Assembly (NCBI GenBank): GCA_002311855.1
Contig: DCAB01000012.1
Location: 42,523 to 106,522 of the forward strand
Length of the DNA stretch: 64,000 bases
Direction: 5' to 3'
Origin: Candidatus Dadabacteria bacterium UBA1144
Lineage (GTDB): Bacteria > Desulfobacterota_D > UBA1144
Shown here: positions 23,698 through 29,015 of the stretch, piece after piece
How positions within the stretch are numbered: position 1 is the first letter of the stretch
Layout of the letters: each line of letters begins with the position of its first letter
Position numbers and translations under genes: made by a program
The notes under the pieces: model-generated
Database searches by the model: none
The model's input: only the letters and a program-made list of their open reading frames with translations
What the model was told of the DNA's origin: nothing

Positions 23698-24693
23698 CTA
23701 ATCCCAATCTAGAGAGCCAGCGGTTTGATATTCCGTAACCCTCGTTTCGAAGAAGTTCTTTTCTTTGGACAAATCAACAGATTGAGACATCCATGGAAAC
23801 GGATTCTCACTTCCGTAATGTTTACCAAGATTTATCCTTTCAAGTCTTCTATCTGCAATATATTCAACGTACTCGCAGAATTGTTCTGGGTTGATACCAA
23901 GAAGGCCATTCGGACAAGCATCATATGCATACTCTTTCTCAAAGTCTACTGCTTTGATTATCAGATTTGTAATATCGGACTTGAAATCTTCTGTCCAGAC
24001 AGTAGGATTCTCTTCTTTTATTGTGTTAATTAAATCACAACCAAATGCAAGATGAATACTTTCGTCTCTCATAATGTATTCAAACTGCTCACCAATACCA
24101 ATCATTTTATTCTGCCTTTTTAGTGCTAACATCATTGCGAATCCGGCATAGAAAAACACGCCTTCCATTATTACGTAATACCCCACTACGTCGTGCAAGA
24201 ATTTTTTTATATCTTCAGTCGAATTAATTGCAAAATTTGGATCCATAATTGACTTAGTGAGGTCAACTACAAAATCATCTTTTTGTTTAATAGAAGGTAT
24301 CGTTTCATACATATTGTATATATAGTCTGGGTCTAAGCCTAAGGTGTCACAACAATAAATAAATGTGTCTGTATGTACGGCCTCTTCATATGCTTGTCTA
24401 AGAAGGTATTGTCTTGCTTCAGGATTAGTCACATGCTTATAAACTGTCAACACTATATTGTTCGCAGTAAGAGATTCCGCGGTAGAGAAAAAACCTAAAT
24501 TCCAGAGAATCATTCTCCTTTCAACTTCTGATAAAACATTGTTGGATTTCCATTGTTCGACATCTTTCTGCATTGAAATTTCTTCCGGAGTCCAGTTATT
24601 CGCAACTCCATCTTTATAATGGTCCCTGGCCCACATATACGTCATTGGCAGTATTTTGTTTGGATCAGTTGAATTATTACTTAGAATTGACAT
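23698..24693 (-). CDS. nrdB: ribonucleotide reductase class I beta subunit (R2)
   Basis: Di-iron/tyrosyl-radical R2 sequence. Start set at Met 24693 (MSILSNN...), which has the RBS AAAGGAGA 8 nt upstream. The ORF-track start at 24729 would overlap nrdA. Confidence 0.92.
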   Translation of the reverse strand: MSILSNNSTDPNKILPMTYMWARDHYKDGVANNWTPEEISMQKDVEQWKSNNVLSEVERRMILWNLGFFSTAESLTANNIVLTVYKHVTNPEARQYLLRQAYEEAVHTDTFIYCCDTLGLDPDYIYNMYETIPSIKQKDDFVVDLTKSIMDPNFAINSTEDIKKFLHDVVGYYVIMEGVFFYAGFAMMLALKRQNKMIGIGEQFEYIMRDESIHLAFGCDLINTIKEENPTVWTEDFKSDITNLIIKAVDFEKEYAYDACPNGLLGINPEQFCEYVEYIADRRLERINLGKHYGSENPFPWMSQSVDLSKEKNFFETRVTEYQTAGSLDWD

Positions 24694-24712
24694 GCTATTT
24701 CTCCTTTGACTA

Positions 24713-27532
24713 TTACTGACAAGCCTCACAGTCAGGGTCTGTTATTATACTACAGCTGCTCGTAACTTCGGTTGCAGGCCTATCATCACCAGCCTTTTCA
24801 TTTTGTAAAAACCCTTCATCGTTATCCACCTCTAGTTTCTTATGTTCTCTTTTTTGTGTATAACCAAATTGGCCTGCATCAAGAGTAGATTTTTCAATTT
24901 GACTGGCCGCTAAAGTCCTTAAGTAATAGGTAGTTTTTAAGCCCAGTTTCCATGCGGTTATATAAATTTCACTTAAGAGTTTACCGGATCCCCCTTGCAT
25001 AAAGATGTTAGTAGATTGACTTTGGTCAATCCATTTGCCCCTTACTGCACTATGTTTCAACAACATAAAAGGATCAATTGAAAAAGCCTCTTTGTATTTG
25101 TTCTTCAGTTGTTCAGGAATTTCATCAATTTTGTCTAGATTGCCATCTAAATATTTAATTTTATCAAGCATATCTTTGGACCAAAGATTTAGTTTTTTCA
25201 AATCGCTAACTAAGTATGAATTAACAACAGTAAATTCTCCACTGATATTTGATTTTACATATATATTTTTATAAATAGGTTCTATACAAGGAAAGCATCC
25301 CGCTATATTGGATATCGTAGCGGTTGGCGCAATAGCCATAGTATTCGAATTTCTCATACCATATTTTTTTACTTTGGCTCTTACTTCTTCCCATTTTAAA
25401 GATGTAATCTTATTAATTTCTATATTTGCCTTTCTTTCTTTTTCCAATAAAGAAAGAGTATCAAGAGGAAATATGCCTCTGTCCCATTTGGAACCATTAA
25501 ATGATTCGTATGATCCTCGTTCCTTAGCAAGTTCAGAGGATGTGAGAATGGCATTGTAAGATATAAATTCAAGCAGTTGATCAGAGAAATTAAGAGCTTT
25601 AGGTGATTCAAAAGGTAAATTAAGTTTGAAAAACACATCTTGAAGGCCCATAATTCCCAGTCCTATTGGTCTATGCTTGAGATTCGAATTTCTAGCTTCA
25701 ATAGTTGGATAGAAATTCAAATCAATTACATTATCCAACATTCTTATCGCTGTTTTAACGGTTTTCTGTAGCAATTCACGATCTAATTTCCCATCTAGAG
25801 TGATATGTTTCTCGAGATTTATCGAACCTAGATTGCATACGGCAGTCTCTTCAGGCGATGTATTTAAAGTTATTTCAGTACAAAGATTTGAACTATGGAC
25901 AACGCCAACATGATCTTGAGGAGATCTTATATTGCAAGGATCTTTGAATGTAATCCATGGATGTCCAGTTTCAAATATTCTTGTAAGCATTTTTTTCCAA
26001 AGATCAGGGGCCTGAATTTTTTTGAATTTTTTAATCTTTCCGGATTCAATTTGGTTTTCATAATTAGTGTAAACCTCTTCGAATTTGCTTCCATATGACT
26101 CATGGAGATTTGGGACTTCTTCAGGGGAAAAAAGGGTCCATTCTTTTTCTTCGACAACCCTCTTCATAAACAAATCCGGAATCCAATTAGCAGTATTCAT
26201 ATCGTGAGTTCTTCTTCTATCATCACCGGTATTTCGTCTTAAATCTAAGAAATCCTCAATATCAAGATGCCAAGTTTCTAGATATGCACATGTTGCGCCT
26301 CTTCTCTTACCGCTTCTATTTATTGCAACCGTAACATCATTTGCAATTTTTAAGAAAGGTATTACACCTTGGCTATCCACATTTGTACTATTAATTCTTG
26401 ATCCTGTTGCTCTAATATTGGTCCAATCATTGCCTAGACCACCAGACCACTTTGAAAGTTGAGCATTATCCCCCACACATTTAAAAATGTGGGATAAATC
26501 ATCACTTATTGTAGTCAAATAACACGAACTAAGTTGTGGATGAGGTGTGCCTGAATGAAAAAGTGTTGGGGTCGAGGAAACAAATTTCATAGACGAAAGT
26601 GTATTGTAAAATTCTAGCGCCCTTGCCTCTTTGTCCTTTTCATTCATCGCCATACCCATAGCGATTCTCATCCAGAATGCCTGTGGGAGTTCGAATCTTC
26701 TCTCATTGTCTTTGAGGAAATATCTTTCATACAAGGTTTGAATACCAATAAACTGAAAAAGGTCGTCTTTTTCCAAGCTAAGTGAATTACTCAATTTTTC
26801 TAAATCAAACTCCAGGAGTCTCTTATCTAAGTAATTGTTTTCAGTTCCAAATTTTATACCATCTATAAAAGTCCTCCTATATTCCGCATCAATTGTATCT
26901 TCGTTAACAGAAACTTCCATTGCTTCCTTGTACAACCTTTGGAGAAAGAGTTTTGCCGACAACTTACTGTAGTCTGGGTCTCTTTCGATAAAGGCTGTTG
27001 CTGAGAGAATAAGAGCTCTCTCTATATCGGAAGTTGATGCTCCATCAAAAATATTTCTTGTTAATTCCTTAATGATAAGATCAGGCGAAGTAGTGGTAGA
27101 ATATCCTTCACAAGCTTTAGATATCGTCTGCCTAATTTTTTGTGGGTTAAAAAGAACTGTGCGCCCATCTTTTTTTCTAATCTTAAGTTTTCCTAGTTCT
27201 GCTTTTTGTGCAACCTTTTCTCTCTGTTGTTCTCTTTCTTTAGATCTTTCTGCTCTATAAATTATGTATCTACGAGCGACTGCAAACATATCCGCTCTTA
27301 TTAAATGTTTTTCAACAATATCTTGTATGTTCTCCACGTTTGGATAAAATTCCGTAAATCTTATCAGAATCTCTTCTTCTATTTCACTAGTTAGTTCAGA
27401 AACCTGAATATCACTATACTCTTCATCTCCAGCCTTGATAGCTGCACCAATAGCATTGAAAATTCTTGTATAATCAAATCCTACTACTTCACCCGATCTT
27501 TTAACAACTAATACCTTCTCAATCTGATCCAT
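24713..27532 (-). CDS. nrdA: ribonucleotide reductase class I alpha subunit with two N-terminal ATP-cone domains
   Basis: 939 aa; two ATP cones (VVKRSGEVVGFDYTRI... and IRKKDGRTVLFNPQKI...); catalytic core; C-terminal CxxC redox pair ...DPDCEACQ. Confidence 0.95.
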   Translation of the reverse strand: MDQIEKVLVVKRSGEVVGFDYTRIFNAIGAAIKAGDEEYSDIQVSELTSEIEEEILIRFTEFYPNVENIQDIVEKHLIRADMFAVARRYIIYRAERSKEREQQREKVAQKAELGKLKIRKKDGRTVLFNPQKIRQTISKACEGYSTTTSPDLIIKELTRNIFDGASTSDIERALILSATAFIERDPDYSKLSAKLFLQRLYKEAMEVSVNEDTIDAEYRRTFIDGIKFGTENNYLDKRLLEFDLEKLSNSLSLEKDDLFQFIGIQTLYERYFLKDNERRFELPQAFWMRIAMGMAMNEKDKEARALEFYNTLSSMKFVSSTPTLFHSGTPHPQLSSCYLTTISDDLSHIFKCVGDNAQLSKWSGGLGNDWTNIRATGSRINSTNVDSQGVIPFLKIANDVTVAINRSGKRRGATCAYLETWHLDIEDFLDLRRNTGDDRRRTHDMNTANWIPDLFMKRVVEEKEWTLFSPEEVPNLHESYGSKFEEVYTNYENQIESGKIKKFKKIQAPDLWKKMLTRIFETGHPWITFKDPCNIRSPQDHVGVVHSSNLCTEITLNTSPEETAVCNLGSINLEKHITLDGKLDRELLQKTVKTAIRMLDNVIDLNFYPTIEARNSNLKHRPIGLGIMGLQDVFFKLNLPFESPKALNFSDQLLEFISYNAILTSSELAKERGSYESFNGSKWDRGIFPLDTLSLLEKERKANIEINKITSLKWEEVRAKVKKYGMRNSNTMAIAPTATISNIAGCFPCIEPIYKNIYVKSNISGEFTVVNSYLVSDLKKLNLWSKDMLDKIKYLDGNLDKIDEIPEQLKNKYKEAFSIDPFMLLKHSAVRGKWIDQSQSTNIFMQGGSGKLLSEIYITAWKLGLKTTYYLRTLAASQIEKSTLDAGQFGYTQKREHKKLEVDNDEGFLQNEKAGDDRPATEVTSSCSIITDPDCEACQ

Positions 27533-27565
27533 AAGATTATCTCAAAACCTTCCCTCGCTCCTTTT

Positions 27566-27640
27566 AAAAAACTTCAGAGGCAAGGAAAGGCCTTAACGGG
27601 GTGCAAAAGGGGATATTTTCGACCTCTCCTTGCCCCAAGG
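27566..27640 (-). promoter_or_regulatory. GC-rich structured element in the nrdA 5' leader (candidate attenuator or riboswitch-like)
   Basis: minus-strand RNA: long-range helix GGCAAGGAgAGG / CCUuUCCUUGCC enclosing 32 nt, competing with hairpin CCUUG-GGG-CAAGG; U6 tract follows; sits between the NrdR boxes and the nrdA SD (GGGAAGG). Confidence 0.3.
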
Positions 27641-27678
27641 TATAACCACTTTCCACTAGTACATCTAAAGGACAATTT

Positions 27679-27694
27679 AACAACATATTGTGAT
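27679..27694. promoter_or_regulatory. NrdR-box candidate (box 2, degenerate)
   Basis: aACAACATATTGTGat is an imperfect palindrome; its centre lies about 31-32 bp from box 1, which is the canonical tandem NrdR-box spacing. Confidence 0.25.
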
Positions 27695-27709
27695 TACGTA
27701 CTCATTAAA

Positions 27710-27725
27710 CCACTATATATAGTAG
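27710..27725. promoter_or_regulatory. NrdR-box candidate (box 1)
   Basis: cCACTATATATAGTag matches the NrdR palindrome acaCwAtATaTwGtgt at 14/16; upstream of nrdAB; also -10-like. Confidence 0.5.
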
Positions 27726-27938
27726 GAGTCAAGTAAAATTTTGGGAAATATAAAATAAATAAAATGCTAATAATATAAGATAATTAGACTAATTGATCAG
27801 AGTTTTTGCTTGAAAAACTAATGGGATATCGAAAGCTTTAAGGCGCAATTATCTAAAGTCAATGCCAAATATCAATTATAGACAGGCTGATTAATGAATT
27901 GTTTTAAATAGGCAATTTTTTAATATAATATAGTTTAT

Positions 27939-29015
27939 ATGTCTTTGTTAGATAATCAGCTTTTCAATCTAATGATATTTGGAAATCCTGCCTGGAAATG
28001 GGGACTTGCGCTTTTAATGACTTTTATCTTCTTCGTAGTTGCAGGTTTTTGTAAGCGTTTTGCTGAAAAAAATCTATATGCATTAGCAAAAAAAACGAAA
28101 ACTAATGTTGATGATTATCTATTTGAAATACTCTCAACAATATCTCCCATTTTTGTATTAGGTGTTTCTCTATACACGGCAACTAAAATAATTTATTTGG
28201 ATCAAAATGTTGATGAAATTGTTGGTCAAATTTTTATATTGGTTCTTTTTTGGCAACTGACTAAATGGGCAGTGCTAATAGCAAACACGATATTTACCAG
28301 ATACAAGGATATAAAAGCCAAGCACCGTGACATGCATGGGGTAACCGCAATTAATGGCCTTAATGCCATTGTTAAGTTTACAATTTGGTTTATTTTCTTA
28401 ATGCTAGCATTAGATAATTTGGGTGTCGATATCACAGCACTTGTTGCCGGGCTAGGTATTGGAGGTCTTGCCATTGCATTAGCAGCTCAGAGCATACTTG
28501 GTGATCTTTTCGCATCTCTTACAATAATGATTGATAAACCGATAGCGCTTGGAGATTATATCGTGGTTGGTGATTTCTCGGGCAGCGTTAAATCCATTGG
28601 CATAAAAAGCACAAAAATTGAGAGCGTAACTGGTGAAGAGATTATCATTTCGAACTCAGATTTACTTAACAGCAGATTAAGAAACTACCAAAAAACTAGA
28701 ATGCAGAAACGAAGGACTACAATTGGATTAGGTGTTGTCTATGAAACAAGTTATGAAAAACTTAATAGAATTCAAAGTATATTAGAAGAGATAGTGAACG
28801 CATCTAAAAGTACAGAATTTGTTAGAGCGAGTTTTATTGAGTTCGCCGATTTTTCGTTAAATTTCGAACTTGTTTATGATGTTCTCAGTCCTGACTATCC
28901 TCAATACATTGAAATAAATCATCAGGTTCGGTTAAAAATCTTTGAAACCTTTAGCAAAGAAGATCTTCAATTCGCTTTCCCAACTAGAACCATACACATA
29001 GTTAAAGATACTTAA
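27939..29015 (+). CDS. mechanosensitive ion channel, MscS family
   Basis: 358 aa; N-terminal TM helices plus conserved MscS beta-domain ...DKPIALGDYIVVGDFSGSVKSIGIKSTKIESVTGEEIIISNS. Confidence 0.85.
   Translation: MSLLDNQLFNLMIFGNPAWKWGLALLMTFIFFVVAGFCKRFAEKNLYALAKKTKTNVDDYLFEILSTISPIFVLGVSLYTATKIIYLDQNVDEIVGQIFILVLFWQLTKWAVLIANTIFTRYKDIKAKHRDMHGVTAINGLNAIVKFTIWFIFLMLALDNLGVDITALVAGLGIGGLAIALAAQSILGDLFASLTIMIDKPIALGDYIVVGDFSGSVKSIGIKSTKIESVTGEEIIISNSDLLNSRLRNYQKTRMQKRRTTIGLGVVYETSYEKLNRIQSILEEIVNASKSTEFVRASFIEFADFSLNFELVYDVLSPDYPQYIEINHQVRLKIFETFSKEDLQFAFPTRTIHIVKDT

Follow-up and report, generated by a model that had tools for sequence, protein, structure and literature searches.

Ribonucleotide reductase (RNR) sets the supply of DNA precursors, and the protein repressor NrdR is regarded as the chief controller of its expression in bacteria. 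In a few bacterial groups RNR is controlled by riboswitches, and those located upstream of RNR genes are the cobalamin riboswitch and, in Mesoplasma, the 2'-deoxyguanosine (2'-dG) riboswitch, each of which senses a molecule tied to RNR choice or demand. The nrdAB operon of Pseudomonas aeruginosa is preceded by a long 5' untranslated region (UTR) that lowers nrdA mRNA level, mRNA stability and protein, and to which no riboswitch or regulator has been assigned (PMC12528414). Here we describe the nrdAB leader of Candidatus Dadabacteria bacterium UBA1144, analysed within a 64,000-nt stretch of its DNA (the window, to which all coordinates without a locus handle refer). This streamlined, uncultured marine lineage has very little non-coding DNA and keeps ~130 nt of strongly conserved folded RNA between a predicted NrdR operator and nrdA. 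Comparison of related leaders makes it very likely that this is a conserved, functional structured RNA, and the leader RNA is probably an element undescribed in Rfam that places a second layer of control on DNA-precursor synthesis. P. aeruginosa likewise has a long leader separating nrdA from an NrdR-controlled promoter (PMC12528414), but the leader of Dadabacteria is the shorter of the two and its fold is defined and conserved; no similarity in sequence or model was found between the two, and a covariance model of the Dadabacteria leader matches only Dadabacteria leaders.

The comparison comprises 20 distinct leaders: that of the window, 2 from representative genomes, 5 from nrdA loci picked by protein identity and 12 from a pattern scan of metagenomes. 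The leader is conserved in marine Dadabacteria whose NrdA is 74–81% identical to that of the window. Invariant or nearly so are the promoter, both NrdR boxes and the RNA blocks GUGAUUA, GGGGCAAGG (strand A), CCCYUUUUGCACCCCGUYA (loop B and its flank) and UUCCUUGCCUCU (strand C), the last followed by AAA in most leaders. The region upstream of the −35 hexamer, the 35–50 nt inside helix P0 and the 15–45 nt from hairpin P1 to the Shine-Dalgarno (SD) sequence cannot be aligned between clades. Blocks that stay invariant beside unalignable flanks, at an NrdA identity of only 74–81%, indicate purifying selection on the RNA blocks. In the window the elements of the predicted fold, in the order of transcription, are as follows.

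27690–27697, minus strand: 5' strand of P0, GUAAUCAC, at the predicted 5' end of the mRNA; pairs with 27642–27649
27664–27670, minus strand: 5' strand of P2, CUUUAGA, a candidate pseudoknot helix
27642–27649, minus strand: 3' strand of P0, GUGGUUAU; pairs with 27690–27697
27621–27636, minus strand: strand A, GGGGCAAGGAGAGGUC, the purine-rich 5' strand of P1, its first 9 nt nearly invariant
27597–27612, minus strand: loop B, CCCCUUUUGCACCCCG, 16 nt in the apical loop of P1
27577–27592, minus strand: strand C, GGCCUUUCCUUGCCUC, the pyrimidine-rich 3' strand of P1 and a candidate anti-SD
27572–27578, minus strand: 3' strand of P2, UCUGAAG, overlapping the last 2 nt of P1

A sequence-only reading of this gap had described a GC-rich structured RNA between the NrdR boxes and the nrdA start codon, built on a helix of 27623–27634 with 27579–27590 that encloses 32 bases. 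Both descriptions hold: the helix is as described, and the GC content at 27580–27639 reaches 0.53 where the window average is 0.33. Folding of the window sequence alone gives modest evidence of structure (z −1.8 to −2.5), and conservation in related nrdA leaders, on which that reading had made its proposal depend, was found in the 20 distinct leaders together with some covariation. P0, P2, the invariant 16-nt loop and a helix that buries the ribosome-binding region in the window species had not been mentioned in it.

P0 (UAAUCAC/GUGAUUA) is an 8-bp helix in which 98.8% of cells are paired across the 20 leaders; five of its eight pairs never vary, the outermost pair has two A-C cells, and all other changes are to G-U. 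P1 is an irregular hairpin of ~60 nt that is the minimum free energy (MFE) fold of the isolated segment in 20 of 20 leaders (−19 to −28 kcal/mol). The 9 bp at its base (GGGGCAAGG/CCUUGCCUC) are invariant in sequence, while the distal stem changes with compensation, reading GGCGAAGAAGAG/CUCUUCUUUGCC in L002; in L081 a G faces the C of a GUCA variant where relatives pair A-U, which reads as a compensating change. Taken together, P0 and P1 have 98.6% of cells paired, compared with 43–57% for partners slid out of register, and four pairs change on both sides; none of 500 shuffles reached the observed covariation score. Loop B (CCCYUUUUGCACCCCG) varies at one C/U position and is otherwise invariant in the 20 leaders, in 12 of which the block was partly fixed by the search pattern.

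The third helix, P2, has the general form (N)UUUAGAG inside P0 with CUCUAAA(N) directly 3' of P1, where it overlaps the last 2–3 pairs of P1. In the window it comprises 7 bp, one of them U-G, and its duplex energy is −7.0 kcal/mol (p 0.1). In the eight leaders of clade 1 all 64 of 64 cells pair, with an outer pair that is U-A, A-U or G-C and two further changes to wobble, and 7 of 500 shuffles do as well. P2 duplexes reach p 0.002–0.1 in 11 of the 18 leaders tested, and in the L084 subclade the helix extends to 10 bp, where L084 and L098 differ by a compensating U-A/A-U swap. P0 and P2 interleave, and if formed simultaneously they would give an H-type pseudoknot topology, which we regard as a candidate. 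Several clade-2 leaders (e.g. L084:1380–1405 and L001:2865–2890) have two candidate P2 5' strands, site I (CUUUAGA) and site II (UUUUAGA or UUUUUGGA), the latter closer to the P0 3' strand; the two sites may represent a duplication or a further alternative pairing.

The leader matched no RNA family, the purine and 2'-dG families included, when Rfam 15 was searched with the whole window at gathering thresholds, with 27400–28000 at E values up to 10 and with three orthologous loci at E values up to 5. Only chance-level matches were returned, the best over the leader being PYLIS_5, with an E value of 1.2 in the window (19.6 bits, where the gathering score is 60) and of 0.44 in L111. The sequence-only reading had failed to match the leader convincingly to the cobalamin riboswitch, and indeed RF00174 was negative both at its gathering score and at E values up to 10, and no B12 box is present. 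The leader is thus like the cobalamin and 2'-dG riboswitches in being a cis-acting structured leader on RNR genes, but unlike them it consists of a long hairpin with a C-rich loop and a candidate pseudoknot. No conserved open reading frame (ORF) was found across the orthologous leaders. A leader peptide was considered and rejected: a 40-aa ORF at 27564–27686 (minus strand), with its ATG inside NrdR box 2, spans the motif, but stops and 1-nt indels interrupt it in L001, L083 and others, and no other lineage conserves it.

We favour, with a probability of roughly 0.4, the reading that the leader is an undescribed cis-regulatory RNA switch that acts on translation through strand C. In this model the leader would be a conformational switch on translation initiation with strand C as the anti-SD. 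As long as strand A holds C in P1, the ribosome-binding region would be free. Loop B, which complements strand A imperfectly, may capture A instead, or binding at the invariant loop and the pseudoknot may remodel P1; C would then pair with the ribosome-binding region. The trigger could be a small molecule, a protein, an RNA or the kinetics of co-transcriptional folding. Such an arrangement would resemble known SD-sequestering RNA switches, in which two mutually exclusive pairings are open to a purine strand, a pyrimidine anti-SD strand and the SD region, with the difference that in Dadabacteria the sequestration is strong in the window species only. There it involves one further segment.

27542–27562, minus strand: segment A', AGGAGCGAGGGAAGGUUUUGA, window-specific and purine-rich, with SD-like GGAG/GGGAAGG

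In the window, strand C and the adjoining GUUAA pair with A' over 17+3 bp (−24.8 kcal/mol, z −5), and in the predicted folds this helix, which buries the ribosome-binding region, excludes P1. The MFE fold of the full leader (−46.9 kcal/mol) contains C:A' and lacks P1, with GGGG paired to the CCCC of loop B; forcing the P1 state gives −44.7 kcal/mol, ~2 kcal/mol from the MFE, so that the two states would be nearly isoenergetic. In 12 of 15 orthologues, folding with strand A left out leads C to pair with the SD. Strand A and loop B are imperfectly complementary (GGG-GCAAGG with CCUUUUGC-A-CCC), and an A:B hairpin forms in 20 of 20 truncated transcripts (−8 to −12 kcal/mol). Such A:B pairing would explain the sequence invariance of A, B and C. 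Segment A' itself is found in this species only and, by eye, matches strand A at 11 of 16 positions; with it, the closest strong SD-like motif is ~15 nt away from the AUG.

A number of observations weigh against a switch of this kind. The strong A' helix belongs to one species; other lineages have only an ordinary AAGGAG or GGAGG at the position of A', and P1 wins most of the full-length folds of orthologues, with the SD not sequestered. The C:SD duplexes of orthologues, at −5 to −12 kcal/mol, are weak and do not outdo those of shuffled sequences, and any CU-rich strand would pair with any SD. The energies of the A:B hairpins are unexceptional (z −0.4 to −1.9), and A:B pairing is beyond the reach of covariation because both partners are invariant. 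P2 is missing in L002 and L123 and lacks alignment-wide support in clade 2. Loop B shows no pairing signal with its own ribosome-binding region (p 0.11–0.86), its pairing with the P0 interior is notable only in clade 1 (GUGCA...AAAGG, p 0.01–0.2) and absent elsewhere, and the loop occurs once in the window, where a search for its complement returned only the loop B site itself. The 20 leaders represent only about six or seven independent lineages, and the covariation consequently rests on few events. The invariance of GGGGC, TTGCACCCCG and TGCCTCT is partly imposed by the search pattern in 12 of the 20 leaders; the same blocks are also invariant in the 8 leaders recovered without it. The transcription start of nrdA, near 27697 for a leader of ~165 nt (~27697–27533), is a prediction from the promoter hexamers. 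Finally, tblastn with an E. coli NrdR query found no NrdR-like ORF within the 64-kb window.

The mechanism put forward in the sequence-only reading was transcription attenuation, in which P1 and a U-run would form an intrinsic terminator in competition with alternative helices. There is a U6 run, where that reading had placed it.

27566–27571, minus strand: U6 run in the window, present as U5 in L096 and L111 only and absent in other clades

It lies seven bases downstream of the helix given above and 5–7 nt after P1, the P2 3' strand abuts it, and a sister lineage that lacks nrdAB has U5 three nt after P1. The architecture did not survive comparison, however. Other clades have no U-run, reading CUCUAAAAAAC, CUCUAAAGUG, CUCUAAACAC and similar; the hairpin loop of 19–28 nt (28 nt in the window) and the spacer of 5–7 nt ahead of the U-run are at odds with a terminator, and our terminator scan gave zero terminator-like sites. 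Nor are two of the three competing helices named in that reading conserved: the local CCUUG-GGG-CAAGG hairpin and, beyond GGGG/CCCC, the CCUUGGGG/CCCCguuAAGG pairing are found in the window lineage only, and at these positions other clades read CCAUGGGG, CCCUGGGG or AACCGGGG. With neither the U-run nor these two helices conserved and a negative terminator scan, an intrinsic-terminator attenuator is not the conserved mechanism, and we consider it highly improbable for this leader. P0, P2, the invariant loop and the SD-burying helix together point to control of translation or of RNA fate, not to intrinsic termination. Control of RNA fate could be had from a constitutive stability or processing element with no switching, in which P0 at the 5' end would protect the transcript from 5'-end-dependent decay and P1, or a stack of P2 on P1, would be the nuclease target or barrier that sets its half-life. 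The first base of P0 falls at predicted positions +1 to +3 of the transcript, P1 is a stable MFE hairpin in most leaders, and the long nrdAB 5' UTR of P. aeruginosa lowers both the level and the stability of its transcript with no specific element identified (PMC12528414). A protective hairpin, though, needs neither an invariant 16-nt loop nor a stem base invariant on both strands nor the crossing helix P2, and the near-isoenergetic alternative fold in the window would be left unexplained; we regard this explanation as unlikely.

Where the leader is compared with riboswitches, the invariant unpaired nucleotides beside covarying stems, the pseudoknot topology, the position in the 5' UTR of a metabolic operon, the lack of a matching family in Rfam 15 and the bistable, expression-platform-like arrangement of the window leader all recall a metabolite riboswitch of a new class. 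Its ligand would be tied to deoxynucleotide supply or to an RNR cofactor and would sit in a pocket built from loop B, the linker CC, the invariant GGGG and the P0/P2 pseudoknot. What is conserved argues otherwise: there is no conserved expression platform, the U-run and SD sequestration both being lineage-specific, and most conserved residues belong to a long regular hairpin with its apical loop, not to junctions or internal loops. With a very narrow distribution in addition, we judge a new-class riboswitch quite unlikely. An aptamer and platform confined to marine Dadabacteria and gating nrdAB translation atop NrdR would be a long shot, and so would the sensing of a dNTP (deoxynucleoside triphosphate), deoxynucleoside or RNR-cofactor signal by it; to our knowledge, a dNTP- or cofactor-sensing class has no catalogued counterpart among the riboswitches of RNR genes (cobalamin, 2'-dG). 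The pseudoknot topology and the invariant 16-nt loop point to a second, post-transcriptional input, and knowing what the loop or fold recognises would reveal a signal other than dATP/ATP that tunes DNA-precursor synthesis. A narrowly distributed cis-regulatory RNA atop NrdR control would be of high interest if it is true that the loop and pseudoknot bind a metabolite. If the blocks were read as DNA, loop B would be a CCCCnTT direct repeat with an 11-bp period, and CCCCTTT-N4-CCCCGTT could be the operator of a response regulator or another DNA-level protein-binding site. We find this scarcely credible: the flanking stem covaries, so that pairing and not sequence is maintained, blocks A and C are mutually complementary and the repeat lies ~90 bp downstream of the start.

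A lineage represented by three assemblies (L096, L100 and L111; L100:2750–3000) still has an intact promoter with both boxes and, in the RNA, intact P0, P1 and loop B, but no nrdA, no nrdB and no adjacent RDD gene. P1 is followed by a U5 run and, 50 nt on, by the stop of a convergent gene of 438 aa. Two strains of this lineage differ by ~10 substitutions per 100 nt upstream of the −35 hexamer and by only four substitutions from there to the end of P1, none of them in the conserved blocks. The orphan leader was either left behind by a recent deletion or stands alone as an RNA under NrdR control, and its retention raises the possibility of an RNA that works alone; because the strains are 97% identical, the substitution pattern offers just a hint of an RNA maintained independently. 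These features would also suit a small RNA, trans-acting or of dual function, that is controlled by NrdR, released from the leader or, in some lineages, made alone, and that uses the C-rich loop B as a seed against the G-rich ribosome-binding sites of other mRNAs. We consider it very unlikely, given that the deletion may simply be recent, that the window yielded no target or complementary site and that in every other lineage the element is fused to nrdA with no terminator.

The leader is preceded by what is almost certainly, judging from its sequence and conservation, an NrdR operator on the nrdAB promoter.

27727–27732, minus strand: −35 hexamer TTGACT, conserved in orthologous leaders; promoter role inferred
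27710–27725, minus strand: NrdR box 1, CTACTATATATAGTGG, filling the −35/−10 spacer; conserved across orthologous leaders
27704–27709, minus strand: −10 hexamer TTTAAT, preceded by TGG (extended −10 TGn, 27710–27712)
27678–27693, minus strand: NrdR box 2, TCACAATATGTTGTTA, transcribed; 16 bp from box 1

The promoter (TTGACT, a 17-nt spacer and TTTAAT, 27732–27704) is conserved in the orthologous leaders, and its −10 hexamer is invariant in a three-sequence alignment and present in every leader listed. A simple consensus promoter scan missed it because the −10 hexamer has no A at position 2. A mutational study of NrdR boxes gives six highly conserved positions, C4, A6, A8, T9, T11 and G13, and a usual linker of 15–16 bp (PMC13584703). 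Read on the minus strand, both boxes carry all six; the linker (27694–27709) is 16 bp, the box centres are 32 bp apart and the stretch keeps its length in alignments of orthologues. The sequence-only reading had placed tandem boxes at canonical spacing in the nrdA promoter, which our analysis bears out; box 1 lies exactly at 27710–27725, and box 2, given at 27679–27694, is real but off by one base in register, the best fit being 27678–27693. Box 1 differs from the full 16-mer consensus at 3 positions, and a match like it is common by chance, occurring at least once in 77 of 100 shuffles of the AT-rich window; the significance of the boxes comes from their position, from each having a partner and from the conservation of both in orthologous leaders at 74–81% NrdA identity. 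In having two partially palindromic 16-bp boxes, separated by a 16-bp linker and overlapping the nrdAB promoter, the operator is like other tandem-box RNR promoters (PMC13584703, PMC9110341), and nothing in the operator itself is unusual. Box 2 is transcribed, and its first four bases also serve in stem P0 of the RNA. Following the known mechanism of NrdR, its tetramer, when loaded with dATP/ATP, would repress initiation at this sigma-70-type promoter, the two boxes occupying its spacer and the early transcribed region.

The operator is more widely distributed than the RNA. A protein identical to the NrdA of the window is recorded in public data for a Candidatus Dadabacteria MAG. The nearest relatives by NrdA (74–81% identity) are labelled Thermodesulfobacteriota or 'bacterium', and their sources include Tara Oceans. 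In a scan of representative genomes, L001 (76%) and L002 (81%) carry an obviously homologous leader, which was not found in the 78 more distant nrdA loci of that scan. Look-ups of NrdA proteins at 74–79% identity yielded four further leader types, and three further look-ups gave no additional lineage. In the next relatives, with NrdA 64–66% identical, and in 70 other distant nrdA loci the leader motif was not found, and NrdR boxes are present in some of these distant loci. At three nrdA loci of 66% identity (L087:1750–1900, L088:1780–1880 and L089:1800–1900) there are clear tandem boxes, e.g. ACACAAGATGTTGTGT twice, followed by short, unrelated leaders, so that the predicted NrdR operator is common to these loci and the RNA motif is not. 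One of the three is flanked by an intein-containing RtcB gene.

The metagenome scan used a three-block DNA pattern fixing GGGGC, TTGCACCCCG and TGCCTCT. It returned 36 loci, of which 22 are true instances, all in the context of an NrdR-box promoter, and the remainder are chance matches in GC-rich DNA. The covariance model built from the 20 leaders found exactly one copy per nrdA locus and none elsewhere in the 573 kb searched; it had no match in the rest of the window, nor in 95 kb around ten viral pattern matches. Viral contigs gave zero matches to the three-block pattern and ten chance matches to the loop 16-mer, all scoring at most 16.5 bits with the model. One chance match to the DNA pattern (L101:3700–4010, minus strand), negative with the covariance model, adjoins tandem heptamer-like repeats (GGGGAGCAGGGGAGTAGGGG...) that are unrelated to the nrdA motif and lie upstream of a gene whose product is HisF-like by eye.

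The gap that holds operator and leader, 27533–27938, separates nrdA on the minus strand from a divergent MscS-like channel gene on the plus strand (27939–29015). It had been called the only long intergenic gap; in fact the window has six gaps longer than 200 nt, five besides this one. A second promoter-like site (TTGATA-16-GATAAT, 10 of 12 matches) lies at 27848–27875 on the minus strand, ~140 bp upstream of the promoter with the NrdR boxes. Relatives do not conserve this sequence, and the site may be due to chance or be an extra start specific to the window. The genes served by the leader are the following.

27530–27532, minus strand: nrdA start codon
24713–27532, minus strand: nrdA, 939 aa, class I RNR large subunit; Pfam matches to two ATP-cones, the RNR all-alpha domain and the barrel
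23698–24729, minus strand: nrdB, RNR small subunit (Pfam PF00268), downstream of nrdA

The N-terminus of NrdA aligns with orthologues as MDQIEKVLVVKRSG / MNQIEE.LVVKRSG. The longest ORF for nrdB, from a GTG at 24729, shares 17 nt with the end of nrdA (24713–24729). In relatives nrdB starts ~20 nt past the nrdA stop, and the true start of the window nrdB is therefore probably further downstream than this GTG.

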